NCBI GenBank assembly: GCA_008632985.1
Contig: QPGO01000306.1
Location: forward strand, 1 to 63,969
Source of the DNA: Psammoneis japonica
Lineage: Eukaryota
Direction of reading: 5' to 3'
Length of the DNA stretch: 63,969 nucleotides
Part shown: in pieces, positions 13,254 through 61,882 of the stretch
Layout: each line of letters begins with the position of its first letter
Position numbering within the stretch: the first letter of the stretch is position 1
Notes under the pieces: generated by a model
Database searches by the model: none
Seen by the model: the letters and a program-made list of their open reading frames with translations, nothing else
Told to the model about the DNA's origin: nothing
Position numbers and translations under genes: made by a program

Positions 13254-13305
13254 TGATGTGCTGTCTCCCCATGCCTTGTCCAGTTGACGACCAGCAGTGT
13301 CTTGA

Positions 13306-15642: not shown

Positions 15643-15783
15643 TGTGCAATTTTTTTAGCTTGTTGTTTGTGCGCATCAAAGGAACAGTCAAAGCCATTGT
15701 TGTTGCATTGTGCACCAGGGCCCTGCTGCTGTTGCTCTGCTCTGCTCTACTCTAAAAATCACACACGCAAAACAAGAATCAAA

Positions 15784-17842
15784 ATGGGAAAAAAGACGGC
15801 TGATGCAAGTCTCAAGGGCAAAAAGCCCATTCATCGAGGCACTCAAAAGATGGCCACTGCGTCCAATCCGGGTTGGATTGGGAACAAACTGAAATGCTTG
15901 GAAATGCACGGAAAGCATCTCATGGAAAAGAAGCGTCAAAAGAACATGGCTCATCGTCAACGCGCCAAGGAAGCCAAGGCACTCAAAGAAGAAGCTCCAG
16001 CAAAGCCCACGCTGCGAACTCTCCAAAACACGCGCGAGTTGGAGCTGTTGGAAATGGTGGGTTAAAAGTTCAAACACCAAAATTAGACAGTGTGAAGAAG
16101 ACGCATGTGTCAGCGCTCATGTGCTCCACGTGAAGCAACAAAACTGCCGATGGAAGCAGTCATTGTTCTCTTTTGACTGTTGCAATTTATCTTTCTCTCC
16201 ACCAGGGTCAAGGATCCAAACAAATCGGATTGGCCAAAGCTGGCGAGGCTCATGAATTTCCTCAAGACAACCCATCTTGATGTCACAGTCATGTCGGCTG
16301 GAGAAAAAGTCATCATTGAGTGGCACACGGATGCCGCATTTGCAGTCCATCCGGACTGCAAAAGTCACACAGGTTCTGCCATGACCCTTGGAAAAGGTGT
16401 CATTGCATCAGTCAGCACGAAGCAGAAGATCAACACCAGGAGTTCTACAGAAGCAGAGATTGTCGCAGGAGACAATGTTTTGGCAAAGGTCCTTTGGACC
16501 AAGTGTTTTGTTGAAGCTCAAGGTTTTGAAGTCAAGCGTGACATCATGCATCAAGACAACCAAAGTTGCACGAAACTAGAACAAAATGGCAAGGCCAGCT
16601 TGGGCAAACGCATGGGACATTTCAACCTCAAGCATTTTTACATCACTGACCTCATCAAGCGAGGAGAACTTGAGATTGAGTTCTGCCCAACAGACAAGAT
16701 GATGGCAGATCACATGACCAAACCAGTGGTTGGTAAAAAGTTCATTGTTGATCGTCAAGCCATCATGAACATCCAAGTGCCCAAGATGGTCAAATTTGGA
16801 AACAGCAAGAATCTTGTCATTGGTCAGCAGGAGTGTGTTGGAAATGGTGAACTAAAAGTTCAAACACCAAAATTAGATGGCGTGAAGAAGACGCATGTGT
16901 CAGCGCTCATGTGCTCCACGTGAAGCAACAAAACTGCCGATGGAAGCAGTCGTCATTCTCTTTTGACTCTTAGAAAGCATTGTCATAACAAGCTTGTCCA
17001 TTTTGGCCTCAGGATCAGACCTCAGAGGATTGAGGTGGCTCTGGAATGGTCACCAGAAGGATAAATTACAACAGCAACCAATGCCAGCAAAACCACACGA
17101 TGAACAAGTTGCCGCCAATGAAGCCAAAGATGGGTTTGCACCGCACTTTGATGATCAAGTGTGGCCCAAAATGCTCATCACCACAAGACCACGTCCGTTG
17201 AAACAGCTCTTTTATTTCATTGCAGACTTGCAATGATTCATTCCGCAAGTGCACTTTTGTCCTCTTAAATCCTTTACAGTCAAGGAAATTTGTGGCTTTG
17301 CTGCCAATCGCGGCTTTGCCCATTTGATTGTGTTGAGTGAAAAGTCCAAAGCATGCAATGGCATGACCATCTTGCACATGCGGGTGCAAAAAGGACACGT
17401 GACGGCCGGCCCCACCGCCTCTTTCAAGGTGAGCAATGTCATTTCATTGACCAACGTTCCCAATCATGGGTCGGCCGCCAGCCACATTCCCGAATTGGTC
17501 TTGAATGGATTTGGAACACAACTTGGACATCAGGTCGGGCATTTTTTGGGGAGTTTGTTTCCACACAATGCTCAGTTTCAGGGACGGCAAGTGGCGACCT
17601 TTCACAATCAGCGGGACTTTGTCTTTGTCAGACATCATCGACATGTCTTTGAGCCGTCCAAGAATGTCAGCAAAGAAACACAGCAACCCAAGACCAAGGC
17701 AAGGTTTAAAGAATTGGGACCTTGATTTGCTCTCAAGCTCTGGTGGATTCAGGAGGGTGCATTTGACACCATGTTTGGTGAGTGCAAATGGATTCACAAG
17801 CGCAAAGAGATGGACACGACGTGCAGAAAGTTTCACTTGTAA
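15784..17842 (+). pseudogene. RPF1: RPF1-like Brix-domain ribosome biogenesis protein pseudogene, interrupted by Copia
   Basis: N-terminus ..IGNKLKCLEMHGKHLMEKKRQK..TLQNTRE; after the insertion PKMLITTR, GPTASFKVSN, HIPELVLNGFGTQLG, GRQVATFHNQRDFVFVRHHRHVF, ELGP*FALKL, RKFHL*. Internal stops. Confidence 0.85.
16046..17073 (+). mobile_element. Internally deleted Ty1/Copia (CoDi-like): partial LTR, RNase H, PPT, LTR
   Basis: Direct repeat TGTTGGAAATGG.. at 16046 and 16836, the second preceded by CAGCAGGAGTG. ORF 16180-16923 carries Copia RNase H motifs DAAFAVHPD, SSTEAE, QDNQS, ADHMTKP. Right end approximate. Confidence 0.85.
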
Positions 17843-18252
17843 GATTTTGCTGGCAGTGCAGCACCGGCAGCACAGCTGATGATTGTCAATGATCCATTGT
17901 TTGCAAGTTTTTTGTGTGGTGCTGAAATGCTAAAGAACATGCACATGGATTGGATGTGACCCAGTTGGTTCCCTGTCACATGTTCGACATGCCGCCGCCG
18001 TCTTGCACCATTTCGTGAAGTCGCGTGCGTCATTGTCTTCTGCCTTGTTTTTGAGGCTTGGGGTTTTGGGGGGAAAATTTTTCAACAAAAGGGGGGATCC
18101 CCCAGATGAAAAAGCGGGGGTCCAGATTTTGGAAAGCACTGAGAATGGATGATCAAACAAACCTAGAAAGCTTCAACTGTTGGTGCCTGGACTGACCTGT
18201 CATTGCATGCAAGGAATGGAGACAGTCTCATCTTGTTTGATAGAATTCTTGT

Positions 18253-18400
18253 TTAGTTTTCATTGAAAAAGAAGTTCCTCAGCAGAGAAAAGATGTGCTC
18301 GGCAGCACCAGAAGATGGCTGAACTAAAGCAACGAGGCATGGGAGTGGAGCTGCATGCAGAAGCGGCGGCTTGTCACCGGATGATTCATCTGCAACAGGC
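18253..18400 (-). pseudogene. hAT-like transposase C-terminal dimerisation fragment
   Basis: LVALVQPSSGAAEHIFSLL resembles the hAT PxSSAxxERxFS motif; lies in a decayed TpA-poor block (about 18060-20880). Confidence 0.4.
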
Positions 18401-20885
18401 GCATCTTCCACCGTCACATTGTTTTCATTGTCTCTTGTCTCCGTGCTGTGTTGCAACTTGCAACTCACCACTTGCTGCAAAATGGCACACTGCGTGCTGC
18501 GCATGATGCACTCACAACCCAGGTCTGCCAGACACAAACAAACTGCCCCCCCCTGCTCCCCCAAAACCCTTGAGCCCATGTGTCAAGGCTTGTTCTTGTC
18601 TGCAAAACAAAATGCTGTGTTGTGCATTGCCCATCAGTGCAGCTCAGGATCTCACATCATGGTTGTTCCATCGCCCTGTCAGAGAAAGCAAACTTGTGCC
18701 CTCCAACCTTGTAGAATGCCATCTTGTGCATGGTTGGAGAGTGCACTTGCACTTGACTTGATGGCAACTGAGGAGATTCTCTGCCATTGGTTGTCTCATG
18801 GTCATGCCACAGCCACAAGATTCAAAAACAGCTTCAGAGTTGAAATTGGTTCAAAGACAAAAGTGAGAATTGGCGTGGCAAAACAAAAAGCATTGGCAAC
18901 AATCATCAAAAACACAGCCACAACAGTCGTGCGGTGCTCCAAACCAAAAGAGCTCACATGGAAGGGTGCCACAAAAAAAGTGCAAGCAGGAGCAGAAGGA
19001 TGCATTGTTTTTGCTTTTGTGCTGAAAAACACAACAACAAAAGCAAGGCTTCTTTCTGTTTTGTCCTTTCCTCTTTTCCAGGCTGCTGCTCTCATTGTGG
19101 CCAAGCACTGACGAGGAGCAGGTGACAAGGTTGTTGGGTTGGTGGGTGGGTCACAGCTCATGGTGTGGTGCTGGCAGCCATGCAGCAGGCTGCACAAAGG
19201 ATGCAGAGATGACCATGGGCTCCAGCTCTGCAAGGTGCAAGAGGGGGCACAAGGGTGCTTGCATGGAGTGTGGTGAGCTCTTAGAAACTCACAATGAAAC
19301 TGCAGTCTCTGGTGGTGAGTGCGCAAGTTGGCCAATTTGTCTGCTGTGCACCTGCTGACATGGTGAAATGCAAACTGAGTTTGCAAAGCGCTGGTGGCAG
19401 CTCAGGGAAGTTGTGTTGTTCCAAGACCAAATGGTCACCTTGTGCAATCCTGGGCCAATCATCAGGACAAAGATGCTGCAGCACCCTGGTCTGCTGGTCA
19501 GGCACAAGACATGCTGGTTCTAGCTCAGGGGTGAGCAAGCAAGGTGGTCAAGCAATCTGTGCCTCATGGCAGTGCAAGGGCCGGCCAAGGGCCAAATTGA
19601 TCAACACATGCACATTGACTTGCTCTTTGGCCAAGCAGGGGCCCAAAACTGAGGTGGCCCTGTTTTCCGGTGTTGTGCACATCAAGCAGACTAAAACCTC
19701 CTTCCCAAAACAGCTTGGCAACTGTGCATGCTGCAGGAAAACAAAGATGAAGGTGTGGCAGATTTCACACAAATGCATCATGTTGATGCAAACCTTTCTC
19801 TTTCCGCAAACAATGCCCTGGTGGGAACAAGAGCCAGCGGTTGACAAATCACTGAAGCAAAGCTCAAAACACACAACACGCACCCATCATGATGCAGGCA
19901 AAACAGCTCAAAACCCAAAAAACCAAGAGCAGGCAAGGGCCATTGTCATCTTCTGTTGGTCAGATCTCATTGCACCCTTCTTGATCTGCCAAAAGGCCCC
20001 CACACCAAGAAAAATGGCCAGCTCATTGTTGCTGCGCCTGGCGTTGCCATGATGAGTGCTGGCAATGGCGCAAATGTGCTGGAGGCCATTGTTGCAGCTG
20101 CTGGGGACCCCACCACTTTCACTGCAGTGAGAGCAAACTCACCACATGCCAGCACCAGATGCTTTGCCCTGGATGCTTTGTTGCCCCAGACCAGAGCCAT
20201 GCCATTGTGGCTGGTGGCCACACACAAAATGTGTCCAAAATCACCTTTGCAAGTCTCCAGCCCACAAACTCACATGTGAGCCACCCTCAATTTGCTGCAG
20301 CAATGCACCCATGCACAGCCACAGAGCTGTTTTTTTTTTCCTGCCAGCCCTTTGATGAAGAAGACACAATCATAGAAGTCGTTGTCGCTCCATGGCAAGA
20401 AGAGGCACTGGCGCGAGAGCGCAAAAAAATTGAGCAGAAGCCAATCTTGTGCACCTGACAAACAAGCAGGCAAGGCATGCTTGTGTTGCAACTCCCTGGG
20501 AAGGCGGTCCATTGGGTGTCTTTTGTGAGGCAACGAGGCTGCTCCCCCAGATGTTGCCTTGTGCTGCACGTGTTGTCCTTTGTGCAAAATGTGCCTTTGT
20601 TTTCTGAGGCAACTCTGCCACAGATGGACTGTGCAATCTCGCGGTTGTTTGTTTGGCAGACGATGGTTTCGCTTCTCCATTGTTTGTTTTTTCCTCGTTC
20701 CACGTGGAAGCAGAATGACCAACGATCCTGATCCTAGCTTTGCGAACTAAACTTTGCAGCCTGTTTTAGCCGTTTTCTGGCCTTTTTGGCCTCTTTAGGA
20801 CGTTTTGACGCTTTTAGGCTTTTCTAGAGTGACAACAGTTGTGGCGGTTTGTTGCTGTTTCAGGCTCTTCTGTTTGGATTGCGGA

Positions 20886-21176
20886 TGCCAAGTGGCGCCA
20901 AGCAACAGTGTGAAGCAGCGTTGTAAAGTTGACTGTTGCTAACATTGTGAGAAGAAATGAAAGAGATTCGGCTGCTCCGAAATCTCGTAGAATTAACACT
21001 AAGAAACCGCGTAGAAATGTGAAGAAACAATCTTTCGAGAGGCATCGAGATGTATCGAGAAAGGAGAAGAGGTTTCTAGAAAGTGTCATCGTTGACATCC
21101 TTTTGACACTTTTGACACCAGGTTGACACCCACGAATGAATGTACGAATGAACACAGATGACCGTGACATTCGGCA
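20886..21176 (-). repeat. 3' LTR of Gypsy copy A
   Basis: 291 bp, one of four copies, adjacent to the PPT. Confidence 0.95.
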
Positions 21177-21197
21177 CTCGCTTCCCCAATTGAGACG

Positions 21198-24100
21198 TTA
21201 GAAGACAGGGTGAAGACGGCGGATGTTGATACGTTCAGTGACGTGAGGCGAGCGCTGGATGGTAACGGTTCCATTGGTGTGGACACGTACGATACGGAAA
21301 GGACCATCTTTGGTGTTGAGTTTGCGTTGGATGTCTTTGGTCATAACGAAGACTTGATCGCCGATGTTGTAGTCGCAAGTAAGACGTTTTGCGTTTTCGC
21401 GGAGATTGTTGCGTAGGACATCGCGCTTGCGACGGGTGTTAATCATTTTCCAGTTCGCAAGATAAGTAGCAGAAATGACCATGTCTCGACCGAAGACAAT
21501 TTGTCCGGGAGACGACATAAGGGCAGTATGGTAGGTACTGCGCAAGGCCCATGCAACGGATTGCAAAATTCCATGAATTGTGTCTTCATCATGATCGCGA
21601 GAAGGGAGATCCATCGCACGGAGAGAATCGGCTATCACTTGATGAATACGTTCAACGAACGCGTTGGCTTGAGGATTCTTGATTGTTGTAGGTTTCGGTT
21701 TAACACCATAACTGTAGAGGAGATCTGTAAACTCGGAAGTGAATTCGGAACCGTTGTCATAAATGACAATTTCTGGTCGCGGATAGCGACAAAACCACTC
21801 GCGATCGACGATAAGTGAAATGTCTTCGGACGTTTTGAACTTATAGTTCGCGAGTTCGACCCAACGGGTTGCGACATCAATAATTGAAACGGCTCTGATT
21901 TTGCGATCGACACCATTTTTGTCGGCACACGTCCAGGGACCGAAAAGATCGACTTGAGTTGCCTGCCAAGGTTTATAAGTAGTATCTGGAAGAGGCAATT
22001 CGCCATAGTTTGCCGTAGTACGCTTGGATTTGGAACACGTGCGGCACTTACGGACAAAAGTACGGACTTTCGTCTGCATGTCGCGAATGTAAAAATGTGA
22101 AGCCAAAGTTTGGTGGGTGCGATTAGCACCAGGATGGCAGAGAGTTTCATGGTGCCACCGTAGAACTGCAGGAAAAAGCGTTGGAGGGAGGACAATCTTG
22201 TTCTTGTAAAGGACAATCTGTTTTCCGTTGAACAGTTCGGCTGAGTAGGATTCGGACTTGTCGAGTCGTTGCTGAAGAGCAGAATCTTTTTTCTGATGGT
22301 CGGCGATAATATCGAAAGTAACGGGGAATATTGAAGGATCGATTTCCAACGAAGTCATTTCCTCGTAATCGCTTTGATCGACTTGGACAATAGGATGGCG
22401 ACTCAAAAAATCAGCCACGACATTCTTGTGGCCTGGCAGGTACTCGAAAGAGCAATCGCATTCCTCGAGAAGCAAACGCCAGCGTTTGACGCGTTCTGAC
22501 TTGAATTTGTCAAATGTAAGATTTTTGTGATCGGTAAATAGGCAGCATCGATGACCAAAAAGGATGCTTTTGAAATTTTCGGTCGTTTCCACGAGCGACA
22601 GTAGCTCTTTTTCCATTGTCGTGTAGTTTCGTTGCGCTTGAGATGATTTTCGGCTGTAGAATGCAATTGGCCATTCGCCATCGTCAAAATCTTGAGTAAT
22701 TATTGCACCAAGTTGATAATCACTCGCATCCGGATAGACATTGAAAGGTTGAGAGAAGTCGGGGAATCGGAGGAGGATTTCGCGTGCCATAATTTTTTTC
22801 ATCTGATTGAAAGCTTCCGTGTGGACGTCAGTCCACTTGAATTTGACTTTGTCTGATGACAGCGCAGTTAAGGGCGTAAGAGTGTGGCTGCGTCGGTACC
22901 ACAATTTCTTGTAATAATTCACGAATCCGATGAAACCACGTAATTGTCGACGGTTTTGAGGGCGAGCGAAGCGAAGTGAGGGCAGGATTTTCTTTTTCTG
23001 AGGCTGAACACCTTTTGTAGTCATGGTATAGCCTAAGCAGTCGACGGTCTTGGCGGCAAGATAGGATTCTTCGACATGTGCGTGAAGATTGTTCGCGAGG
23101 AGCCGTTGCAAGACGAGTTCGAGTCGTTGACAGTGATGGTTGAAGTTGTTCTTGGTAAAGAGGATGACATTGTCGATGTAGACTATGATATCTTCCACAT
23201 CATGAAAAATGTCTGTCATGTAAGCTTGAAAAATATCGCTTGCCGGTTTGATTCCTTGCGGTAGGCGGTTGTAGCAATACTTGCCCCACGGCAGGATGAC
23301 ACCGCAGAGTTTTTTTGACTCGTCGTCAAGCACGAAGTGACAGTAGCCTCGGTTGAGGTCCAAACATGTCGCATGGGTAAAGCCGTTCATTTTCCATACG
23401 ACGTCGTCGATAATAGGTAGTGGATATGGATGCCGTTCGAGACACTCGTTGAGTTTCCGTAAATCGGATAAGAAACGGATACCACCGCTTTTCTTTGATC
23501 GAAAAAGACAGGGTGCGCCCCAAGGAGAGTGAAGTTTGCGCGTAATAACATCGATTTTTTCCAATTCATCCACTTCTTTGCGAGCCATGGGATATAACGC
23601 TTGCGGAATAGTGTAAGCTTTCGCACAGCATGGACGCGATCCTGGTTTCAGGGTCAAATGGACGGGTTTACCGGGTACAGCTCCAAGTGTACCATCGAAT
23701 AATTGCGGGTATCGTCCGAAGAGTTCGATGAGTTGGTGCTGTTGATCGTTATCAAGGTGTTTGCAGCGTAGAACCATGTCGCGATAATTGTGCTTGTCGT
23801 ACGCATTGCTCGTCATACCTCGAACTTGACGGTTGACGGCATTCTGGAAGAACTTGGGTAATTCAGCATCGCCGGGATGAATTGCATTAACTTCGACTTG
23901 GTCGAAAGAGCCCTTGGATCGCATGGATAGGGTAACATCGCCCCACGTGATTGTTTGATGTCGAAAATCAAAAACGAGTCCCATTTCTGTGGCGGTTTTC
24001 TTCCGATGATAACATCGTGTTTTCCTACGGCTTTGTCTTCCACATGAGCATCGACGGAAACCTTCTTGGACGATGCGAAGTCTGGGAACTTCAATGTCAG

Positions 24101-25420
24101 CGTCGCAATCTCGTGTAGATTAACGGTGCTGTAACGGCCTTTAACGGGAACGTCACATTTACGGATTTTGTGAGGAATCCCGCGAAGGGCTGAGCGCTTC
24201 ACAAAATTGCGATTTGCGCCGGTGTCGAGTGGAGCAACACGGAACTTGTGCATTCCAGAATGAGCATCAATCATCTGGACACGCGCTTCCGTGGCAAGAT
24301 TGTCTTCTATTTCGGATTCGATGGAATCGTCTAGAAGAGACGTGACGTCTTCAAAAATGTCGTTGACATCGTCTGACGCGACGCTATCGACATCGTTAGA
24401 AGCGGAGCGACTGGCTTTGGAGTCCACATTATTGTTTTCGACGTTCCGTGTGCGGCTCCGTGTGGGACAGCGGTGTGTCGGCTCGTTTCGAGAGTTATTT
24501 TGTTGATTCGGCGCACTCCGATTTGCGCGGTTCCGCTCATAATTTTCACGTTCACGACGGATGACATTGCACTCTTGACCGTTCGGATGTACAACGCCAT
24601 GGATTGGACATGTTTGTTCACTGTTGTTTTGATTCCTGTTCCTGGTGTCGCGATTTTGGTCGTTGTTCTGGCCGCGACGCGCATTTCGACCGTTGTTGCG
24701 TCGATTCCGATTGTCATTGCGTCTGTTGTCATCGGTAGACCCTTTGTCACCACGTCGTTCCATACGTCGGAGAGTCTCGTAGTGTTGAGCTTGGTCGTTC
24801 AAGTTTAAGTTGCGAAGACGGGCTTTAGTCTGAGTTTCGGCCCATGATCTTGGTCCACATTTTCGAAGGATTACGGACAATTCCGCTTCCGTGAATGACG
24901 GAACTCTTTCGGCGTCATCTTCGGTTGGCGTAGGCATGACATTAATCAACTTATTAAAGCGACGGATGTCATTAACAAATGACTTGACAGTTTGGTTCCT
25001 GGGTTTCTTGAGGCTTTGAAGCCATTCCTTGGCATCAAGGGCAATTTCTCCATCCATGCATTGGAGCAGAAATTCTTCACGACAAGTGTCGAATGTAACT
25101 TGGTCGCGGTTTTCGTATTCGTCTACGACGATTTCCCAGTCGTCTTTTGGTGTTCCGGTCATAAGTCTGGTCACGAGCCGGAAACGTGGCTGTCCTTCAG
25201 CCGCACCGAGATCGTTGACAAGTTCATCGAAGTTTGACCAGAAGGTAAGAACATCTTCCGGTTCAGTTGAAGCTAACTTACGTACCTCGATCGTAGTTTT
25301 AAGCCCATCTGGATCGTCAGGATCAATGGGGCTTTCAAAAGACACGAATTGGTCTTTGCGTCGCTCTTCCTCAGAGCGGTCAGGATGCTCAAGTTCGAAT
25401 GGGCAGTTTTCTGCTGACAT
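21198..25420 (-). pseudogene. gag-pol of copy A with a 1-bp frameshift near 23996-23999
   Basis: ORFs 23813-25420 and 21198-23984; 4 T versus 5 T in copy B at GGCGGTTTT(T)CTTCC. Confidence 0.9.
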
Positions 25421-25493
25421 GTCTGGTCAGGACAATATGATCGGTAGATATATCTCAAGAGAGATAAATAAGTGTTTGGGAGTAAATTTACTA

Positions 25494-25784
25494 TGCCAAG
25501 TGGCGCCAAGTAACAGTATAAAGTAGCGTTGTAAAGTTGACTGTTGCCAATGTTGTGAGAAGAAATGAAAGAGATTCGGCTACTCCGAAATCTCGTAGAA
25601 TTAATACTAAGAAACCGCGTAGAAATATAAAGAAACAATCTTTCGAGAGGCATCGAGATGTATCGAGAAAGGAGAAGAGGTTTCTAGAAAGTGTCATCGT
25701 TGACATCCTTTTGACACTTTTGACACCAGGTTGACACCCACGAATGAATATACGAATGAATATAGATGACCGTGATATTCGGCA
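25494..25784 (-). repeat. 5' LTR of Gypsy copy A
   Basis: 291 bp, upstream of the gag ATG at 25420. Confidence 0.95.
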
Positions 25785-25875
25785 ACGGATCTTCGAGCCT
25801 CACAATTTTGAAGCGTTGCAAACCAGCACAATTTAGGTACATTCTTCCTTCATTTTTCGTTTCAAGTCTTCTACG

Positions 25876-26610
25876 ATGAAGTGTTTTAGCTGCGTTCTTG
25901 TTACCTTGGCCATTTCCCTGGTCCACGGGGAAGGAGATCATGAACACGGTCACCATGATCATTCTTGTGCTTGCGAAGCGCAAGAATTCGGATTTTCGAT
26001 TAACTGCCGCGACCAGGATTCCATGCTGGCAGCCTTATCCGTTCTCCAAGACGCTGACAACAACTGCAAGGCCGACTGCACGTCGGAAATCTGTCACAAG
26101 AACTTCCTCATTGTCAAGTCTCACCACGACTACTGTCTTCACGATGAAGCCCCTGAGCCTCTCGAGGACGGCATTCACTTTTTCGAAGACAGCTGCGAAG
26201 GCTGCGAGATTGGCCGCCGGCCGGATCCCAACCTCCCGGACTGCCCCACTGCATCGTGTAACGACAGCGGCAACGACGCGTGTCAGAGTCTCCTGAATGG
26301 CGGATGCCTCGACAGCTGCAACACCGAAGAGTGTACCAGCAGCTACCGCATTCTCCGTGCTGTCCACGACAACTGTCCAGAGGATACACTTGATCAGATT
26401 GCGGAATCCGGCATTCACGACTTTGAAGAGCCTTGCGAGGAGCACAACTGCAACTCACACTCGGGTGCCGAGGACCTAGCCAAGCAACTCGTTTGTGAAG
26501 AAGATCCAGAACCTCAGGACAACAACTCGGCTGCTCCGGGGTTGGGGTCTGTCGGCTTGTGGGTTCTCTCCTTTGGTGGTGTTATCATGGCTGCGGCTCA
26601 AATGGCCTAA
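25876..26610 (+). CDS. Secreted/surface Cys- and His-rich protein with two internal repeats; putative metal-binding, possible GPI anchor
   Basis: Signal peptide, HEHGHHDH, two C..HD.C..D....E.GIH.FE..C units, hydrophobic C-terminus. Confidence 0.8.
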   Translation: MKCFSCVLVTLAISLVHGEGDHEHGHHDHSCACEAQEFGFSINCRDQDSMLAALSVLQDADNNCKADCTSEICHKNFLIVKSHHDYCLHDEAPEPLEDGIHFFEDSCEGCEIGRRPDPNLPDCPTASCNDSGNDACQSLLNGGCLDSCNTEECTSSYRILRAVHDNCPEDTLDQIAESGIHDFEEPCEEHNCNSHSGAEDLAKQLVCEEDPEPQDNNSAAPGLGSVGLWVLSFGGVIMAAAQMA

Positions 26611-26666
26611 ATCCTATACATTTTTGTTGTAGTGTTTTAGTAAAGAATAGAGTCGATGTCACAGTA

Positions 26667-27250
26667 GGGCCAGTACTTATGTTTTCTTGTAGCAATAGCT
26701 CAAAACAAAGAGTGGTAATCCATTCTGGAAATAGTGTACCAGCATCAGCGTGACGAGTTCCGCGGCTAACTACCGGTATAGTCCATCGTGTGTTACACCT
26801 TTCTCAATCCCTCAAGCTACACCAAATGGCTTGCTGTAATGTTGGAGTAAAGAATTGAGACGATGTCATCGTTGGGCCAGTGCTAAATTGTCTCTACTAG
26901 GTAGTAGCAATAGCCCAAAGCAAAGAGCGGTACTCCATTCCCGAAAATAGTGTATGAGCATTATCAAGACGATATTCGAGAAACTTGAAATATACAAGAA
27001 AAAAATGAGATCAACAAGGAAAATAAAAATAACTACACACTACGACGTTCACAATCAAGCAGCGACGCTGTTGCGAATAGGTGATTTGGGGCCAGTGCTA
27101 AATAGCAATACCCCAAGGCAACGAGCGGTGTTAATCCATTCCCGAAAATCTATCGAGACGAGTAAGAAACTTTAAATATCGCTACAAAATGAGATCAGAC
27201 CACAAACGAGGTCCCTACGACGTTCACAAATAATCAAGCAGCGACGAGTC
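26667..27250. repeat. Degenerate ~210-bp tandem repeat (3 units)
   Basis: GGGCCAGT..TAGCAATA..ATCCATTC at about 26667, 26874 and 27089; CTACGACGTTCACAA..TCAAGCAGCGACG occurs twice. Confidence 0.7.
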
Positions 27251-27763
27251 TACAGGACGATATTTTTCATTTGCTACCGAAAAAGCATTGTCGCATCTTT
27301 TCGAGCCAGTCGATTGTAGACTTGTGGATGCAGCATGTCGCGGACACTTGCAATGTTGTGGTTTTGAATCGCCTTGCGAATGGCCGTGCTGGATTCGTTG
27401 TTGGAGAGGATGCTTCCCCTAATGCAAACGGCTTGACAATTTTTGGGTCGCCGACTTGTAGTACCTGGTCGTTCTACAACCACGCACCATGGCTGTTGAT
27501 ACAATTGACATTTCTCCGCATGATCTGCTCCGCACACATAGTTCACTGACACGTTCGGGCCAAGTGCTTCTAACAAATGGTTTCGCACGTCGGGAAAGTC
27601 CATCAGTCGTGGTTGTGAAATCTCCCAATCGTCCACAATGATACGTTCCGTAGCTACGAGTCGGCAGAGTTCTACTTTGGTGGAATTGTCGAGACTACCA
27701 AATGGCTTGCGTTGACTCCACCGAGCATCACTTGGCGATAGTATGCAACCCAAGACGGCCGTA

Positions 27764-28054
27764 TGCCAAGTGGCGCCAAGTAATAGTATAAAGTAGCGTT
27801 GTAAAGTTGACTGTTGCTAATATTGTGAGAAGAAATGAAAGAGATTCGGCTACTCCGAAATCTCGTAGAATTAACACTAAGAAACCGCGTAGAAATATAA
27901 AGAAACAATCTTTCGAGAGGCATCGAGATGTATCGAGAAAGGAGAAGAGGTTTCTAGAAAGTGTCATCGTTGACATCCTTTTGACACTTTTGACACCAGG
28001 TTGACACCCACGAATGAACACACGAATGAACATAGATGACCGTGATGTTCGGCA
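27764..28054 (-). repeat. 3' LTR of Gypsy copy B
   Basis: 291 bp TGCC..GGCA. Confidence 0.95.
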
Positions 28055-28075
28055 CTCGCTTCCCCAATTGAGACG

Positions 28076-31000
28076 TTAGAAGACAGGGTGAAGACGGCGG
28101 ACATTGATACGTTCAGTGACGTGAGGCGAGTGCTGGATGGTAACGGTTCCATTGGTGTGGACACGTGCGACACGGAAAGGACCATCTTTGGTGTTGAGTT
28201 TGCGTTGGATGTCTTTGGTCACAACGAAGACTTGATCGCCGATGTTGTAGTCGCAAGTAAGACGTTTTGCGTTTTCGCGGAGATTGTTGCGTAGGACATC
28301 GCGTTTGCGACGGGTGTTAATCATTTTCCAGTTCGCAAGATAAGTGGCAGAAATGACCATGTCTCGACCGAAGACAATTTGTCCGGGAGACGACACAAGG
28401 GCAGTGTGGTGGGTGCTGCGCAAGGCCCATGCAACGGATTGCAAAATTCCATGAATTGTGTCTTCATCATGATCGCGAGAAGGGAGATCCATCGCACGGA
28501 GAGAATCGGCTGTCACTTGATGAATGCGTTCAACGAACGCGTTGGCTTGAGGATTCTTGATTGTTGCAGGTTTCGGTTTAACACCACAACTGCAGAGGAG
28601 ATCTGCAAACTCGGAAGTGAATTCGGAACCGTTGTCATAAATGACAATTTCTGGTCGCGGATAGCGACAAAACCACTCGCGATCGACGACAAGTGAAATG
28701 TCTTCGGACGTTTTGAACTTGCAGTTCGCGAGTTCGACCCAACGGGTTGCGACACCAACAATTGAAACGGCTCTGATTTTGCGATCGACACCATTTTTGT
28801 CGGCACACGTCCAGGGACCGAAAAGATCGACTTGAGTTGCCTGCCAAGGTTCATAAGTAGCATCTGGAAGAGGCAATTTGCCACAGTTTGCCGCAGTGCG
28901 CTTGGATTTGGAACACGTGCGGCACTTGCGGACAAAAGTGCGGACTTTCGTCTGCATGTCGCGAATGTAAAAATGTGAAGCCAAAGTTTGGCAGGTGCGA
29001 TTAGCACCAGGATGGCAGAGAGTTTCATGGCACCACCGTAGAACTGCAGGAAAAAGCGTTGGAGGGAGGACAATCTTGTTCTTGTAAAGGACAATCTGTT
29101 TTCCGTTGAACAGTTCGGCTGAGTGGGATTCGGACTTGTCGAGTCGTTGCTGAAGAGCAGAATCTTTTTTCTGATGGTCGGCGACAACATCGAAAGTAAC
29201 GGGGAACATCGAAGGATCGATTTCCAACGAAGTCATTTCCTCGTAATCGCTTTGATCGACTTGGACAATGGGGTGGCGACTCAAAAAATCAGCCACGACA
29301 TTCTCATGGCCTGGCAGGCACTCGAAAGAGCAATCGCACTCCTCGAGAAGTAAACGCCAGCGTTTGACGCGTTCTGACTTGAATTTGTCAAATGCAAGAT
29401 TTTTGTGATCGGCAAACAGGTAGCATCGATGACCAAAAAGGATGCTTTTGAAATTTTCGGTCGTTTCCACGAGCGACAGTGGCTCTTTTTCCATTGTCGT
29501 GTAGTTTCGTTGCGCTTGAGATAATTTTCGGCTGTAGAATGCAATTGGCCATTCGCCATCGTCAAAATCTTGAGTGGTTGCTGCACCAAGTTGATGATCA
29601 CTCGCATCCGGATAGACATTGAAAGGTTGAGAGAAGTCGGGGAATCGGAGGAGGATTTCGCGCGCCACAATTTTTTTCATCTGATTGAAAGCTTCCGTGT
29701 GGACGTCAGTCCACTTGAATTTGACTTTGTCTGATGACAGCGCAGTTAAGGGCGTAAGAGTGTGGCTGCGTCGGTGCCACAATTTCTTGTAATAATTCAC
29801 GAACCCGATGAAACCACGTAATTGTCGACGGTTTTGAGGGCGAGCGAAGCGAAGTAAGGGTAGGATTTTCTTTTTCTGAGGCTGAATACCTTTTGCAGTC
29901 ATGGCATGGCCTAAGCAGTCGACGGTCTTGGCGGCGAGATAGGATTCTTCGACATGCACGTGAAGATTGTTCGCGAGGAGCCGTTGCAAGACGAGTTCGA
30001 GTCGTTGACAGTGATGGTTGAAGTTGTTCTTGGTAAAGAGGATGATATTGTCGATGTAGACTATGATATCTTCCATATCATGAAAAATATCTGTCATGTA
30101 AGCTTGAAAAATATCGCTTGCCGGTTTGATTCCTTGCGGTAGGCGATTGCAGCAATACTTTCCCCACGGCAGGATGACACCGCAGAGTTTTTTTGACTCG
30201 TCGTCAAGTACGAAGTGATGGTAGCCTCGGTTGAGGTCCAAACATGTCGCACAGGTAAAGCCGTTCATTTTCCATACGACGTCGTCGATAATAGGTAGTG
30301 GATATGGATGCCGTTCGAGACACTCGTTGAGTTTCCGTAAATCGGATAAGAAACGGATACCACCGCTTTTCTTCGATCGGAAAAGACAGGGTGCGCCCCA
30401 AGGAGAGTGAAGTTTACGCGTAATAACATCGATTTTTTCCAATTCATCCACTTCTTTGCGAGCCATGGGATATAACGCTTGCGGAATAGTGTAAGCTTTC
30501 GCACAGTATGGACGCGATCCTGGTTTCAGGGTCAAATGGACGGGTTTACCGGGTACAGCTCCAAGTGTGCCATCGAATAATTGCGGGTGTCGTCCGAAGA
30601 GTTCGATGAGTTGGTGCTGTTGATCGTTATCAAGGTGTTTGCAGCGTAGAACCATGTCGCGATAATTGTGCTTGTCGTACGTGTTGCTCGTCATACCTCG
30701 AACCTGACGGTTGACGGCATTCTGGAAGAACTTGGGTAATTCAGCATCGCCGGGATGAATTGCATTAACTTCGACTTGGTCGAAAGAGCCCTTGGATCGC
30801 ATGGATAGGGTAACATCGCCCCACGTGATTGTTTGATGTCGAAAATCAAAAACGAGTCCCATTTCTGTGGCGGTTTTTCTTCCGATGATAATATCGTGTT
30901 TTCCTACGGCTTTGTCTTCCACACAAGCATCGACGGAAACCTTCTTGGACGATGCGAAGTCTGGGAACTTCAATGTTAGCGTCGCAATCTCGTGTAGATT

Positions 31001-32299
31001 AACGGCACTGTAACGGCCTTTAACGGGAACGTTACATTTACGGATTTTGTGAGGAATCCCGCGAAGGGCTGAGCGCTTCACAAAATTGCGATTTGCGCCG
31101 GTGTCGAGTAGAGCAACACGGAACTTGTGCATTCCAGAATGAGTGTCAATCATCTGGACACGCGCTTCCGTGGTAAGATTGTCTTCTACTTCGGATTCGA
31201 TGGAATCGTCTAGAAGAGACGTGACGTCTTCAAAAATGTCGTTGATGTCGTCTGACGCGACGCTATCGACATCGTTAGAAGCGGAGCGACTAGCTTTGGA
31301 GTCCACATTGTTGTTTTCGACGTTCCGTGTGCGGCTCCGTGTAGGACAGCGGTGTGTCGGCTCGTTTCGAGAGTTATTTTGTTGATTCGGCGCATTCCGA
31401 TTTGCGCGGTTCCGCTCATAATTTTCACGTTCACGACGGATGACATTGCACTCTTGACCGTTCGGATGTACAACGCCATGGATTGGACATGTTTGTTCAC
31501 GATTGTTTTGATTCCTGTTCCTGGCATCGCGATTTTGGTCGTCATTCTGGCCGTGACGCGTGTGTCGACCGTTGTTGCGTTGGTTCCTATTGTCATTGCG
31601 TCTGTTGTTGTCGGCAGACCCTTTGTCACCACGTCGTTCCATGCGTCGGAGAGTCTCGTAGTATTGAGCTTGGTCGTTCAAGTTTAAGTTGCGAAGACGG
31701 GCTTTAGTCTGAGTTTCGGCCCATGATCTTGGTCCACATTTTCGAAGGATTACGGACAATTCCGCTTCCGTGAATGACGGAACTCTTTCGGCGTCATCTT
31801 CGGTTGGCGTAGGCATGACATTAATCAACTTATTAAAGCGACGGATGTCATTAACAAATGACTTGACAGTTTGGTTCCTGGGTTTCTTAAGGCTTTGAAG
31901 CCATTCCTTAGCATCAAGGGCAATTTCTCCATCCATGCATTGGAGTAGAAATTCTTCACGACAAGTGTCGAATGTAACTTGGTCGCGGTTTTCGTATTCG
32001 TCTACGACGATTTCCCAGTCGTCTTTTGGTGTTCCGGTCATAAGTCTGGTCACGAGCCGGAAACGTGGCTGTCCTTCAGCCGCACCGAGATCGTTGATAA
32101 GTTCATCGAAGTTTGACCAGAAGGTAAGAACATCTTCCGGTTCAGTTGAAGCTAACTTACGCACCTCGATCGTAGTTTTAAGCCCATCTGGATCGTCAGG
32201 ATCAATGGGGCTTTCAAAAGACACGAATTGGTCTTTGCGTCGCTCTTCCTCAGAGCGGTCAGGACGCTTAAGTTCGAATGGGCAGTTTTCTGCTGACAT
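28076..32299 (-). CDS. Single-ORF Gag-Pol polyprotein (1407 aa)
   Basis: Gag CPIH..H....EC, protease LLDTGA, RT LDL/RLPQG/YIDN, RNase H DASD..EKE..DH..ADFLSR, integrase H..H..C..C, D,D(35)E, GPF. Confidence 0.95.
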   Translation of the reverse strand: MSAENCPFELKRPDRSEEERRKDQFVSFESPIDPDDPDGLKTTIEVRKLASTEPEDVLTFWSNFDELINDLGAAEGQPRFRLVTRLMTGTPKDDWEIVVDEYENRDQVTFDTCREEFLLQCMDGEIALDAKEWLQSLKKPRNQTVKSFVNDIRRFNKLINVMPTPTEDDAERVPSFTEAELSVILRKCGPRSWAETQTKARLRNLNLNDQAQYYETLRRMERRGDKGSADNNRRNDNRNQRNNGRHTRHGQNDDQNRDARNRNQNNREQTCPIHGVVHPNGQECNVIRRERENYERNRANRNAPNQQNNSRNEPTHRCPTRSRTRNVENNNVDSKASRSASNDVDSVASDDINDIFEDVTSLLDDSIESEVEDNLTTEARVQMIDTHSGMHKFRVALLDTGANRNFVKRSALRGIPHKIRKCNVPVKGRYSAVNLHEIATLTLKFPDFASSKKVSVDACVEDKAVGKHDIIIGRKTATEMGLVFDFRHQTITWGDVTLSMRSKGSFDQVEVNAIHPGDAELPKFFQNAVNRQVRGMTSNTYDKHNYRDMVLRCKHLDNDQQHQLIELFGRHPQLFDGTLGAVPGKPVHLTLKPGSRPYCAKAYTIPQALYPMARKEVDELEKIDVITRKLHSPWGAPCLFRSKKSGGIRFLSDLRKLNECLERHPYPLPIIDDVVWKMNGFTCATCLDLNRGYHHFVLDDESKKLCGVILPWGKYCCNRLPQGIKPASDIFQAYMTDIFHDMEDIIVYIDNIILFTKNNFNHHCQRLELVLQRLLANNLHVHVEESYLAAKTVDCLGHAMTAKGIQPQKKKILPLLRFARPQNRRQLRGFIGFVNYYKKLWHRRSHTLTPLTALSSDKVKFKWTDVHTEAFNQMKKIVAREILLRFPDFSQPFNVYPDASDHQLGAATTQDFDDGEWPIAFYSRKLSQAQRNYTTMEKEPLSLVETTENFKSILFGHRCYLFADHKNLAFDKFKSERVKRWRLLLEECDCSFECLPGHENVVADFLSRHPIVQVDQSDYEEMTSLEIDPSMFPVTFDVVADHQKKDSALQQRLDKSESHSAELFNGKQIVLYKNKIVLPPTLFPAVLRWCHETLCHPGANRTCQTLASHFYIRDMQTKVRTFVRKCRTCSKSKRTAANCGKLPLPDATYEPWQATQVDLFGPWTCADKNGVDRKIRAVSIVGVATRWVELANCKFKTSEDISLVVDREWFCRYPRPEIVIYDNGSEFTSEFADLLCSCGVKPKPATIKNPQANAFVERIHQVTADSLRAMDLPSRDHDEDTIHGILQSVAWALRSTHHTALVSSPGQIVFGRDMVISATYLANWKMINTRRKRDVLRNNLRENAKRLTCDYNIGDQVFVVTKDIQRKLNTKDGPFRVARVHTNGTVTIQHSPHVTERINVRRLHPVF

Positions 32300-32372
32300 G
32301 TCTGGTCAGGACAATGTGATCGGCAGACACATCTCAAGAGAGATGAACAAGTGTTTGGGAGTAAATTTACTG

Positions 32373-32663
32373 TGCCAAGTGGCGCCAAGTAACAGTATAA
32401 AGTAGCGTTGTAAAGTTGACTGTTGCTGATGTTGTGAGAAGAAATGAAAGAGATTCGGCTACTCCGAAATCTCGTAGAATTAATGCTAAGAAACCGCGTA
32501 GAAATATAAAGAAACAATCTTTCGAGAGGCATCGAGATGTATCGAGAAAGGAGAAGAGGTTTCTAGAAAGTGTCATCGTTGACATCCTTTTGACACTTTT
32601 GACACCAGGTTGACACCCACGAATGAATGCACGAATGAACATAGATGACCGTGATATTCGGCA
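32373..32663 (-). repeat. 5' LTR of Gypsy copy B
   Basis: 291 bp TGCC..GGCA. Confidence 0.95.
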
Positions 32664-32932
32664 CCGTACCTTGGTTCTCAAAGTGCTTCGCCGCCAATTC
32701 AAGCATGTTCGTGTGGCCAACATGGACTGGATTCATGGAGCCCGTTGTAAACAGCACCACGGCTGGCTTCTCTAGATCATGGCGTTTGCACTTTTCAATC
32801 AAGTTTTGCATGTTATTGCTCTTGCATTACAAGCGAAAGTGGTGCGAACAGGTGGGCGAACAGGTAGGCGAACAGTGAATGAATCGAAACGTGCAAAATT
32901 ACAAAACTTCAAACTGCGATCTGCGCGCGCAC

Positions 32933-35171
32933 CACCCCTGTGGTAGGGGAGCTGTGTGTGTGTGCGTGGTTGTGCGCGCACGGCTTCGCCGTGCGTTGAG
33001 TTTTAATGTTAACATCCACACGCATGTGTGTGTTCCACAAGTAAAAATTCCCATTCCACAGCTCCCCTAAAACTCTAACCACCAAAAACCGAGGGGTCGG
33101 AAGCGCACTTTCGGGAGCTCTTTTTCTCCGCACAAAAAACACGCGTTTCGTCGACTCGACCATGATGATGCCTCGTGGTTCTTCCCCATCGCCTTCCCAG
33201 GACGCCGATCCTACTGACGCCATTGCCAATGACACTGATGCAACAGGCAATGTCATCATTCCGGTTCTCGTGGGTGTGATGCGTACAAAATAAGATGCTA
33301 CAAACTCACACTGTTGTTTGCACGCTCCACCGCCTCCCACAGATGCTGTCACGAATTCCAACGCCGCACCTGCGTTTTGGCCCCCTAGCATGCCCGATGC
33401 TGTTGCTCCTGCCCTTGCTGCCATCACTCCTGCCCTCACTGCCGCAGGTGCTGTTGATGCTGTCATTGCATTTTGCCAATGACGTCCACAATGAAGTGCC
33501 AATGACTCGCACTTCTTTCATTCTCGCCCCACCGCCTCCCACAGATGCTGTCACGAATTCCAGTGCTGCACCTGCGTTTCGGCCCCCTGGCATGCCCGAC
33601 ACTGTCACTCCTGCCCTCACTGCCGCAGGTGCTGTTGATGCTGTTGTTGTCTTTTGCCAACAACGTCCACAACGAAATGCTTGTAACTCACACTTCTTTC
33701 ATTCTCGCCCCACTGCCTCCCACAGATGCCATCATGAATTCCAATGCCGTGCCTGCGTTTCGGCCCCCTGGCATGCCCGACACTGCCAATCCCACCCTTG
33801 CTGCTGCAGTTGCTGTTGATGCTGTTGTTGTTTTTGCTTTGGAAGGAACACAATGGATGACGGATGACGGCGGACCAGGAAACCCACGCAACCACGGCCT
33901 GCTGATGGACGACACATCAATGGACATGAATGGTGCCTCTTGGTTGGCTCTCGAGTGCAGTCTAATCTTTGGAACATGCAGACACAGCATGCAGCTCTCT
34001 GTGGGTTAGAAACCTGACAACAATTGGATGGCAGGCATGCTTTCACAGTTTTTTAGTTTCAAGTTGGAGAGGTCAGCGAATTGGCATTTGTTTGCAGGTG
34101 ACTTGGCAAGGTTTCAAATGGTGCATGTGACTTGGACACTGCTCTGTTTTCCAGGACCAGGTCATTGTGTGCAATTCCACAAGAGGCCACTCTCGCCGTT
34201 TGAGTTCTGCATGTGATGTGCAACATGCTGTTTTTGCATGTTGCTAAAATGGAGGCAGGCAGCAACGTGCTTTTGGCAAACACTCACTGTGTTTGTCACT
34301 GTCAGACCTTCAAAACTGGTGCCTTGTCGACAGCCATGCTGCCACTTTGCATGCCGGCACCTTCTCTGCCCGCACTCCATTGGCTGCGTCCTCCTTCACA
34401 TGTTGCTGCGGTTCATCTTGACACTTGTTGTTGGCTCCGATTGGTTCCGCTGGGCTCTGGGTGAGTCTCAATCACCTCCAGATGGACAAGGTTCTGCTTG
34501 GGAACAATTGTCCTGAGAAAGGTTGTCACCATGCCTCCTGTCATAGATGCTCCTCTGCCACGCCCACTGAACCTTGACGTCGGTTTGTTGCTTTTGTTTT
34601 TTGACCTGGTTTCGGAGCTGCACCCCAGACCGTTTGAGAGAAGGCTCATCAGTGCCTTCCACAACACGGCGATGCGAACGAGAATCCAGTTTTTCCAGGG
34701 ACGCAATGACAGGAGCAGACCAATCACGGGGCGCTGTGTTTGTGTTTCAGGCACAGGATCTGGTGAACAGAACCCCAAATCCTCCGGATGGCAAATCGGC
34801 TGTGTTTGGGTAACGACAGCGGGTGCAATGGCACCGGCCATTGCAGGAGGGACTGCCGCATCAGACATGGCAGGCAGGGATGCGTCAGGTGGTGTGGGGG
34901 ACGAAGAACGGGAGGTCGTCATGGTCGAGTCGACGAAACGCGTGTTTTTTGTGCGGAGAAAAAGAGCTCCCAAAAGTGCGCTTCCGACCCCTCGGTTTTT
35001 GGTGGTTAGAGTTTTAGGGGAGAATATGGTTCAGGATTTTTCCTGCTACTATTAGCATTTGTGTACAAATGCATAAATAAATGTGAGGACATTTATATAA
35101 AAATATAATGAATAAGATATAAACTGCCACGTAACCATGACATCACCATATTCTCCCCTACCACAGGGGTG
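32933..35171. mobile_element. Non-autonomous TIR DNA transposon (9-bp TSD, Mutator-like)
   Basis: Perfect 19-bp TIR CACCCCTGTGGTAGGGGAG (32933-51, 35153-71), TSD CGCGCGCAC (32924-32, 35172-80), inner inverted repeats of more than 100 bp starting 33062 and ending 35022. No transposase seen. Confidence 0.88.
33300..33845. repeat. ~190-bp tandem repeat x3 inside the TIR element
   Basis: CCACCGCCTCCCACAGATGC..GAATTCCA..CATGCCCGA recurs at about 33327, 33529 and 33709. Confidence 0.8.
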
Positions 35172-39233: not shown

Positions 39234-39689
39234 TGTGAATGGATGGCTTTGCTTTGCATGCAGCAGTCGACCAGAGGTGATGCTGTTGTTGTTGTTCATG
39301 CTGGAGCCTTCGCGCGTCGTCGTCGTGCGGTGTGTTGGTGCAGTTGGTGGGAGTTGCACAATGACCCCACCCGCGTTTTGTACTGATTTTCTACGACACA
39401 TAGTGTCCGTTAAATGCTGCGAAAACACGTAGAATTCTACGGAAGAAGTCATAACTTGTGTTATAAGATATTTAAGACCTAAATAAGATATATCAAATTT
39501 CTACTGAAAGATTGCGTTCAGTTCTTAGTATGTAGAAGTCATACAACGATCACTTCTCATTCCTTTTTCCGGAAAAGGGTGTCATGCTGTACGATTTCGA
39601 ACCACTCAACGCAATGTCAATCAATTGTACTCCGCATCAAGCAATTTATCAATCAAGCAATTGATGTAATCTTCTGCCAGCGACCTGAC

Positions 39690-42250: not shown

Positions 42251-42738
42251 TGAAACCTTTTTTTTAACCATTTTTTGCCGGTCCTTACCTCACATTGTCT
42301 CCTAAAGCCGTTGTCTATTTCACCACAACGAAAGAATGCAAACGACAAAGAGCTGTCGCGTCGTCGTCATGGCAGAGTGGGAGCCACCAACAGTCACGCA
42401 CAGGCGTCGTAGATTCTGTACGCAACGGACAATCATAGGCATAGCATCGGCATGCGTTTTATCCATCATCGTATGATGTCAAATACCGGTTACGTCTCTA
42501 CGTGAACGAATGTCCGAGTTATTTTATCGGTACAGTATGTGCTGGAATTCCAAATACCATATTGCGTTGGTGTACCGGTAGTTCCTACAGTACCTGAATT
42601 TGTGGTTTGGTTGTTGGTTGCTGGTTGCTGACCGCTGACTTTCCACAAAGCCAGCTCGAACGGCATTGCATTAAGCAATAAGGTAGCCTAGTAAGTTACT
42701 AAGACAGAGAAGAGCCACCCTATCTTACGTGCAGCAAC

Positions 42739-61821: not shown

Positions 61822-61882
61822 GAATTGTATAATTATAGGGAAAGTTAATCCCCTTCTTCATTGCCAGATTGTGTGCAAATAG

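Follow-up and report, generated by a model that had tools for sequence, protein, structure and literature searches.

TpA-restricted transitions in two young Ty3/gypsy retrotransposons of Psammoneis japonica and a matching long-term footprint in the DNA around them

How can the two long terminal repeats (LTRs) of one retrotransposon, which are copied from one another and are expected to be nearly identical at integration, come to differ at TpA dinucleotides and nowhere else? The question was raised by contig QPGO01000306.1 of Psammoneis japonica (assembly GCA_008632985.1), of which we analysed positions 1 to 63,969; this whole stretch is referred to below as the window. A first-pass annotation, made from the letters alone, had flagged the interval 20881-32668 and had proposed that repeats were being mutated there from TpA to TpG or CpA. 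We found that the flagged interval consists of two full-length Ty3/gypsy LTR retrotransposons on the minus strand, spaced by 2 kb. We consider it probable that these two young copies were mutated in the chromosome after their integration, from TpA to TpG or CpA, and that the process was confined to the elements.

The assignment to Ty3/gypsy is based on LTRs of the form TGCC...GGCA (TG...CA ends), target-site duplications of 5 nt and the order reverse transcriptase - RNase H - integrase; in the open reading frame (ORF) of copy B the Pfam domains follow each other as RVT_1, RT_RNaseH, Integrase_H2C2 and rve. The closest relatives of the element protein in the protein collection searched were 46-55% identical. 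The host was identified as a diatom because the neighbouring vacuolar-sorting-receptor gene matched diatom proteins best, its top named matches (58-68% identity) being from Ditylum, Synedra, Odontella, Attheya, Seminavis and Pseudo-nitzschia. The parts of the two elements are as follows.

20886-25784, minus strand: Ty3/gypsy LTR retrotransposon copy A, its frame interrupted solely by a 1-nt deletion near 23995
21198-23984 and 23813-25420, minus strand: ORF pieces of copy A
20886-21176, minus strand: 3' LTR of copy A (left in the window), 291 nt, 14 of 23 inferred ancestral TpA sites converted
25494-25784, minus strand: 5' LTR of copy A, 291 nt, 3 of 23 TpA sites converted
20881-20885: left target-site duplication of copy A, GCGGA, whose first base forms TG with T20880
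25785-25789: right target-site duplication of copy A, ACGGA, in the TA state as in the insertion-free allele
27764-32663, minus strand: Ty3/gypsy LTR retrotransposon copy B, with an intact ORF of 1407 amino acids at 28076-32299
27764-28054, minus strand: 3' LTR of copy B, 291 nt, 5 of 23 TpA sites converted
32373-32663, minus strand: 5' LTR of copy B, 291 nt, 7 of 23 TpA sites converted
27759-27763 (left) and 32664-32668 (right): target-site duplications of copy B, CCGTA, the two sides identical
25790-27758: unique spacer between the copies, TpA content normal, without hypermutation

The reverse-transcriptase active site, at residues 748-751 of protein P0001 (~30049-30060, minus strand), reads YIDN where YxDD is usual. 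This motif was invariant in 11 of 11 aligned family members, and it is therefore a family trait and not hypermutation damage.

Re-alignment of the four LTRs gave the same counts as had been reported, i.e., 15 differences within the copy A pair and 8 within the copy B pair. The claim that all of them are transitions at TpA also held, as 21 of 21 variable columns were transitions within sites that read TA, CA or TG. Such sites make up 46 of the 291 LTR columns, and all variable columns would fall there by chance with a probability of ~1.5e-17. About 15 unchanged CpGs had been counted in each LTR, and 15 of 15 CpG columns were identical across the four; the three-state site was likewise found as described (GCTAACATT, GCCAATGTT, GCTAATATT, GCTGATGTT). 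The pairwise distances (15, 15, 15, 8, 6 and 8) were star-like, with partners within one element not closer to each other than LTRs from different elements, and no LTR contained a single difference outside the TA class. This indicates that both copies entered with the same LTR sequence and were changed later, reaching a divergence of 2.7-5% with no ordinary substitutions. The LTRs of copy A were hit unequally (14/23 in the 3' LTR versus 3/23 in the 5' LTR, Fisher p = 0.0018), and the changes in its 3' LTR comprised 8 CA and 6 TG. By hand count, the odd-one-out state among the four LTRs was CA or TG at 15 of the 17 singleton sites and TA at 2.

The same picture was obtained when the copies were compared at full length (4908 and 4909 nt). 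They were separated by 165 substitutions and one 1-nt indel; 158 of the substitutions were transitions, and 135 fell within TA/CA/TG sites, including 19 sites at which one copy had CA and the other TG. From a TA ancestor, these 135 events are A:T to G:C changes. Transitions with a 5' base other than T numbered about 22 in total. CpG was shared at 358 sites and differed at 9 (358/367 kept), and the young copies still had a CpG rho of 1.36 while 28-39% of their TpA had already been converted. Both kinds of change were found on one strand, with 28 CA and 26 TG in copy A and 45 CA and 36 TG in copy B, and no premature stop codon was present in either copy despite the 135 events.

Two controls looked ordinary. 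In related gypsy elements from 78 metagenome loci, the TA class accounted for roughly 10-30% of differences (pairs with at least 20 substitutions), and there were at most 5 flips between CA and TG among up to 677 substitutions. Neither the copy pairs nor the LTR pairs of these 78 loci carried the signature, and no 1-kb window of them was exhausted of TpA, in a set retrieved via intact protein motifs and hence biased against mutated copies. The genic segmental duplication in the same window (segment 1-900 / 5537-6436, about 83-85% identity) had 17 of 132 substitutions in the TA class, an ordinary spectrum. The excess of the TA class in copies A and B is therefore neither a property of the clade nor an artefact of counting. 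Two short repeat pairs (16046-16181 / 16836-16971 and 33062-33187 / 34897-35022) had few differences, too sparse for the spectrum to be judged. For an independent comparison we used Logan contigs of one public sample, which covered 19.9 kb of the window. Over these 19.9 kb, 696 of the 807 variant places in the k-mer contigs were transitions, and among the variants listed, 9 lay inside the elements and 8 of these belonged to the TA class, so that the element family varies there in the same manner. The family is multi-copy, with a summed depth of 260-1250 versus ~60 for unique DNA.

The direction of change had been read from the three-state site as starting from TA, and both outgroup proteins and quartet logic agree with this. 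Three independent lines point to TA, one of them being the odd-one-out states of the LTRs given above. For the 19 CA-versus-TG sites, the only one-step parents are TA and CpG, and since CpG barely changes, these sites need a TA ancestor. For the outgroup test we aligned ten outgroup polyproteins and regarded a column as conserved when at least 8 of the 10 agreed. The 70 non-synonymous events fell into 33 non-conserved and 37 conserved columns. In the latter, the outgroup residue corresponded to the TA state in 30 columns, to the derived residue in 0 and to neither in 7. A typical case is an invariant tyrosine (TAY) that became histidine in one copy and cysteine in the other. The ancestral TpA rho back-calculated by simple arithmetic was ~0.74, against a median of 0.73 in the 78 related loci.

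The changes had been placed after insertion and at the level of DNA, a view upheld by the star pattern of the LTRs, by the comparison of target-site duplications with an empty allele and by the lack of purifying selection. The non-synonymous share (70/107) was close to the 63% expected from random TpA hits (p = 0.69), which indicates that the copies were not filtered through further rounds of transposition. In a 2891-nt contig at unique depth, position 20880 is followed by 25785 and position 27758 by 32664; the contig thus represents an allele without either insertion, and it differs from the flanks and spacer of the window by 3 letters in 2891 nt. Its presence at unique depth indicates that both insertions are polymorphic or heterozygous, and young. 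At the joint of copy B (27758>32664), 5 letters fit both sides and correspond to the target-site duplication CCGTA, whereas at the joint of copy A (20880>25785) 0 letters do. From this it follows that the empty allele reads TTACGGA where the left side of the occupied allele reads TTGCGGA. Here host DNA went from TpA to TpG, 5 nt beyond the end of the copy A LTR, and this change cannot be older than the integration. Editing of RNA alone is insufficient, as had been argued, because A>G and T>C both occur on one strand and the LTR partners differ.

The process is confined to the elements. The stretch 25785-27758 (1974 nt) contains 84 TpA and has 1 difference from the insertion-free allele; at the lowest LTR rate 11 hits would be expected there (P(<=1) = 1e-4), so that unique DNA between the copies was spared and did not share the rate of the elements. 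Within the copies the hits were patchy (chi-square p = 2e-4 and 2e-6). The proposal of a mutator aimed at repeats was thus upheld as far as confinement is concerned, but targeting by repetition or homology, as implied by the term 'reverse RIP' (RIP, repeat-induced point mutation), was not demonstrated. The elements are multi-copy, yet the genic duplication is unaffected, the TpA-exhausted DNA at 18.2-20.8 kb has a depth near single-copy, and in the chlorarachniophyte Bigelowiella natans the target described in the main text of a preprint is a single-copy viral insert (Mettrop et al., bioRxiv 10.64898/2026.01.13.699255). For these reasons, the data are better explained if the target is the mobile-element or gene-poor compartment and not repetition in itself. 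What guides the process may be a mark, of chromatin or of small RNA, on DNA that is mobile or silent. Its role may be one of defence, although 'genome defence' is an interpretive label.

The TpA context extended beyond the dinucleotide. Read along the strand that carries the changed A, the A was hit in 104 of 546 cases when a pyrimidine (Y) came next and in 31 of 410 when a purine (R) did (p = 3e-7), and by site class the hit rate decreased from 45% in RTAY through 30% in YTAY and 23% in RTAR to 11% in YTAR. The preference is 5'-TAY-3', or equivalently RTA on the opposite strand. We also looked for strand-coordinated runs, which would point to deamination of single strands; there were none, with 25 runs versus 27.9 expected and 39 versus 41.0 (p = 0.25 and 0.37).

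A long-term footprint with a matching context was found in four blocks of the window that are almost exhausted of TpA.

7701-20800: exhausted block 1, CpG-poor and CpA/TpG-rich, rho TA 0.10, CG 0.39, CA 1.72, TG 1.63
33301-35000: exhausted block 2, rho TA 0.09, depth 3800-6800 versus ~60 for unique DNA
33323-33837: tandem repeat in block 2, 4 CA/TG flips among 21 substitutions
39601-42400: exhausted block 3, rho TA 0.06, CG 0.21
44501-53200: exhausted block 4, rho TA 0.05, CG 0.18
47150-47453 / 52450-52775: old LTR-like direct repeat pair in block 4, 126 substitutions, 14 CA/TG flips

Together the blocks cover 26,300 of the 63,969 nt (41% of the window) and occupy the long gaps between recognisable genes; copy A is located at the right edge of block 1. 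In the blocks the rho of TA was 0.05-0.10, compared to 0.60 elsewhere in the window, that of CpA and TpG was 1.63-1.96, and that of CpG was 0.18-0.60, compared to 1.01 elsewhere. TA, CG, CA and TG were the only dinucleotides that deviated, the other twelve being normal. Among the 130 TpA that survive in the blocks, YTAR made up 56% versus 20% elsewhere (p = 1e-17) and RTAY 5% versus 28% (p = 5e-10). This residual context is the complement of the preference that the young copies show, which links the blocks to one and the same process. As the young copies retain full CpG, the loss of TpA runs well ahead of the loss of CpG. With depths of 800-6800, some stretches of the blocks are present in very many copies in the sample. 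Stop-to-stop frames of at least 110 amino acids numbered 78 on both strands of the blocks, because TAA and TAG are almost absent there, and such frames are likely to be miscalled as genes.

A Pfam scan of 43 stop-to-stop ORFs from the blocks gave 1 match, to the Brix domain, and no mobile-element domains. The Brix-domain fragment (17237-17722, plus strand, E = 6e-18) stands within exhausted DNA at a depth of ~2000 versus 60, and it may be a captured or pseudogenised piece of a host gene inside a repeat. For a block ORF of 376 amino acids, the protein search found no relatives. A stop-free frame of 481 amino acids in block 1 (13309-14751, minus strand) had 107 metagenome relatives, 11 of them at E <= 1e-30 and the best at E = 1e-36, and no Pfam families were found in the 10 relatives scanned. 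Its tyrosine content was 0.2%, compared to 2.0% in 29 relatives, and its two conserved tyrosine columns, too few to count, read V and C. This frame may be what is left of a mobile-element protein not yet described.

Taken as a mechanism, the reading that we prefer runs as follows. An A preceded by T, on either strand of the palindromic TpA, is changed so that A:T becomes G:C; both strands are hit without coordination and in patches, and CpG and other contexts stay essentially untouched. No stop codons are made, so that frames remain open while conserved residues disappear (tyrosine to histidine or cysteine, isoleucine to valine, threonine to alanine, and leucine to proline or serine). Over time this process seems to have removed more than 90% of TpA from the gene-poor blocks, where a slower loss of CpG feeds the same pool of CpA and TpG. 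As transitions are exclusive and the 5' T is strict, the lesion could be an enzymatic deamination of adenine to hypoxanthine in DNA, to which we give about an even chance. A 5' neighbour of this kind is found at the target of tRNA adenosine deaminases (U33-A34) and is preferred by ADAR.

The same outcome, however, would be given by another chemistry with the same targeting, either a modified thymine of TpA that mispairs with G or an error-prone repair polymerase that wrongly places G opposite T when patches of silent chromatin are repaired. Since TpA is palindromic, A-to-G on one strand equals T-to-C on the other, and uncoordinated hits on two strands suit an enzyme that reads double-stranded TpA. 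The WA hotspot of polymerase eta errors includes TA; it also includes AA, yet only about 1 of the 165 substitutions is an A/G change after A, which makes an eta-like WA error process unlikely. Taken as a whole, we regard this other chemistry as unlikely. We rate slightly lower, and likewise as improbable, the editing of the elements before integration, in which an adenosine deaminase would act on the genomic RNA and/or the single-stranded cDNA, in the style of APOBEC3 but on A. Such editing would explain hit elements and a spared spacer without any targeting device, and the chance-level share of non-synonymous changes also fits one burst of editing in the last cycle. Moreover, of the two LTRs of copy A it is the 3' one that was heavily hit, and its minus strand, in our reading of the standard scheme of reverse transcription, stays single-stranded longest. 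However, near identity of LTR partners at integration is hard to combine with 15 and 8 differences, and late editing of the minus strand predicts one kind of change instead of the mixture seen in that 3' LTR. Host DNA of the target-site duplication is changed relative to the empty allele, and the same motif footprint extends over 26 kb of blocks, most of which cannot be recognised as retroelements, as well as over the tandem repeat of block 2. Also, the changes in B. natans arise de novo in resident chromosomal DNA, according to the main text of the preprint (bioRxiv 10.64898/2026.01.13.699255).

A technical artefact, such as base-call errors at modified bases or a chimeric repeat consensus from polishing, is very unlikely in our view. 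The assembly is scaffolded, with a run of N at 60305-60879, and letters private to one copy were not confirmed by the contigs. On the other hand, the window and independent contigs agree over the unique flanks and the spacer, and these contigs show the same class of variation in the element family. Errors in base calling would not bring one copy back to outgroup residues that the other has lost, nor would an artefact yield 26 kb without TpA in which the residual context matches, and chimerism reshuffles existing variants but creates none. Least credible of all, and close to excluded, is a conventional RIP-like or methylation-driven C-to-T change, with CpA/TpG or CpG ancestral and TpA derived. 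Differences between TA and CA/TG are what fungal RIP leaves, and the DNMT4 enzymes of diatoms are relatives of the RID enzyme of fungal RIP, according to the relevant part of a published article (PMC9998398). Nevertheless, RIP-type change from CpA to TpA is excluded because the outgroups carry the TA-state residues, and also because it would have created stops (TAA and TAG), of which none were gained. The singleton states of the LTRs are mostly CA or TG, the 19 CA-versus-TG sites could be reached by C-to-T only from the stable CpG, and the blocks are depleted in TpA, not enriched. The earlier view that neither fungal RIP nor CpG decay fits the locus is thus well founded, the former having the opposite polarity and the latter being at odds with the retention of CpG in the LTRs (15/15) and overall (358/367) in the young copies.

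Several points weigh against mutation of the integrated elements as we describe it. The damaged base, adenine or thymine, is indistinguishable from sequence. Known single-strand DNA deaminases leave clustered changes that are strand-coordinated, a pattern that the lack of strand coordination here does not match. The evidence of the target-site duplication is one site, and it was taken from the coordinates of the joint and not from contig letters. The evidence base is one assembly and the contigs of one sample, with events reconstructed and none seen de novo. At 9 listed element positions no Logan contig has the letter of the window, although such contigs drop rare variants. Polishing or assembly with reads from other family members could make the assignment of LTR variants partly chimeric; this would weaken the argument from the star pattern and leave the evidence from polarity, neutrality and the target-site duplication intact. 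Most of the blocks are without recognisable mobile-element genes, and their origin is suggested by depth and by one old LTR-like pair. Finally, the related elements from other samples do not carry the signature, which may therefore not be general among diatoms.

The same TpA-only signature has already been reported once, in 2026, in a chlorarachniophyte, and the diatom case shares with it the signature, the confinement and the footprint. The main text of the preprint on B. natans (Mettrop et al., bioRxiv 10.64898/2026.01.13.699255) describes a TpA-restricted hypermutation of integrated giant-virus and virophage DNA, in which 230 of 231 new mutations were A>G or T>C and every one of these lay at TpA; they arose in only some of the lines, at ~6e-7 per site per generation (range about 1e-7 to 1e-6). 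According to the same text, the B. natans genome also contains clusters depleted in TpA and enriched in CpA and TpG, which for the most part resist annotation and in which reverse transcriptase and DDE domains are enriched; its authors draw a comparison with RIP and propose deamination of DNA adenine by an ADAT2-like DNA deaminase. The two cases agree in having nearly only A>G/T>C changes at TpA, giving TpG or CpA depending on the strand. They also agree in confinement to particular inserted regions (with the rest of the genome normal there, and the spacer and flanks here), in a patchy distribution (episodic or patchy there) and in a TpA-depleted footprint rich in CpA and TpG. They differ in the host, a member of Rhizaria there and a diatom here, and in the targets, which are a single-copy 186-kb viral insert and a virophage there and multi-copy LTR retrotransposons here. 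In B. natans, mutation-accumulation lines revealed the events de novo; here they were reconstructed from LTR pairs, outgroups and the empty allele. Depletion is deeper here (rho 0.05-0.10 versus 0.45 in their viral region) and coupled with the loss of CpG. The words 'trinucleotide', 'context' and 'diatom' are absent from the main text of the preprint, and the TAY preference would thus be new here. For diatoms, our literature searches found no such report, in agreement with the first-pass annotation, and the available portion of Maumus et al. 2009 (PMC2806351) makes no mention of TpA hypermutation.

With fungal RIP the process shares dinucleotide-specific transitions in DNA that ruin mobile elements in place, the axis between CpA/TpG and TpA, and large aberrant blocks. 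RIP, however, goes from CpA to TpA and leaves stops and AT-rich DNA, while here TpA goes to CpA or TpG without stops, and RIP needs duplicated sequence and a premeiotic stage, neither of which is demonstrated in the diatom case. Strand-coordinated runs are typical of single RIP events and are absent here. Hyperediting of repeat RNA by ADAR, which prefers a 5' U, and editing of cDNA by APOBEC3 likewise give clustered transitions of deaminase type in retroelements. They act before integration on one strand, which keeps LTR partners similar and leaves only A>G (ADAR) or G>A (APOBEC) on the sense strand, unlike the present case, with both kinds on one strand, differing LTR partners and a hit in the host target-site duplication. 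The decay of CpG through deamination of 5-methylcytosine also removes a palindromic dinucleotide to TpG/CpA on either strand, and it co-occurs in the old blocks. It concerns, however, another dinucleotide and another base, and CpG in the young copies was left untouched while their TpA was being converted.

If the preferred reading is true, TpA-specific A:T-to-G:C hypermutation of inserted DNA would be known from two organisms, P. japonica being the second and the first among diatoms, and a case known from a single species would become a candidate for a widespread defence in the SAR group, home of major marine primary producers. Beyond the preprint, the LTR partners and the target-site duplication with its empty allele date the events after integration, and the TAY preference provides an enzyme fingerprint. 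A wider proposal, which we consider somewhat less likely to be right than wrong, is that diatoms and chlorarachniophytes share an old enzymatic editing of adenine at TpA (TAY) in double-stranded DNA. Guided to mobile or viral DNA by chromatin or small RNA and not by homology, it would inactivate insertions before ordinary mutations accumulate and would in time make much of the genome (41% of the window) free of TpA, poor in stop codons and unannotatable, and it would amount to a natural adenine base editor acting as genome immunity. A natural TpA-specific DNA adenine deaminase would directly interest base editing. In such genomes the dating of insertions by LTR divergence would be invalid, as the LTRs diverged here without ordinary substitution, and exhausted DNA without TAA and TAG would yield long spurious ORFs, mask a mobile-element origin and distort the annotation of genes and repeats.

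Some further features of the window were noted. The segmental duplication spans 1-1940 / 5537-7297 with ~80-83% identity and contains 84-nt tandem repeats within an LRR-Roc-TIR gene (ORF 3586-7335, minus strand). In block 1, a contig skips 1041 nt at 16046-17086, a stretch with TG..CA ends and 8 other letters in between, which opens with the 136-nt direct repeat pair 16046-16181 / 16836-16971 (93% identical); it looks like a second polymorphic insertion or replacement. At block 2, two convergent ORFs rich in proline and alanine have a common 126-nt leader, 93% identical and inverted (33062-33187 / 34897-35022), and one of them has tandem repeats of 181-202 nt in a stretch at 60-110 times the unique depth. 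The N run at 60305-60879 is a scaffold gap of 575 N, and the 2-kb stretch after it (60001-62000) has 37% G+C versus ~48% elsewhere in the window.

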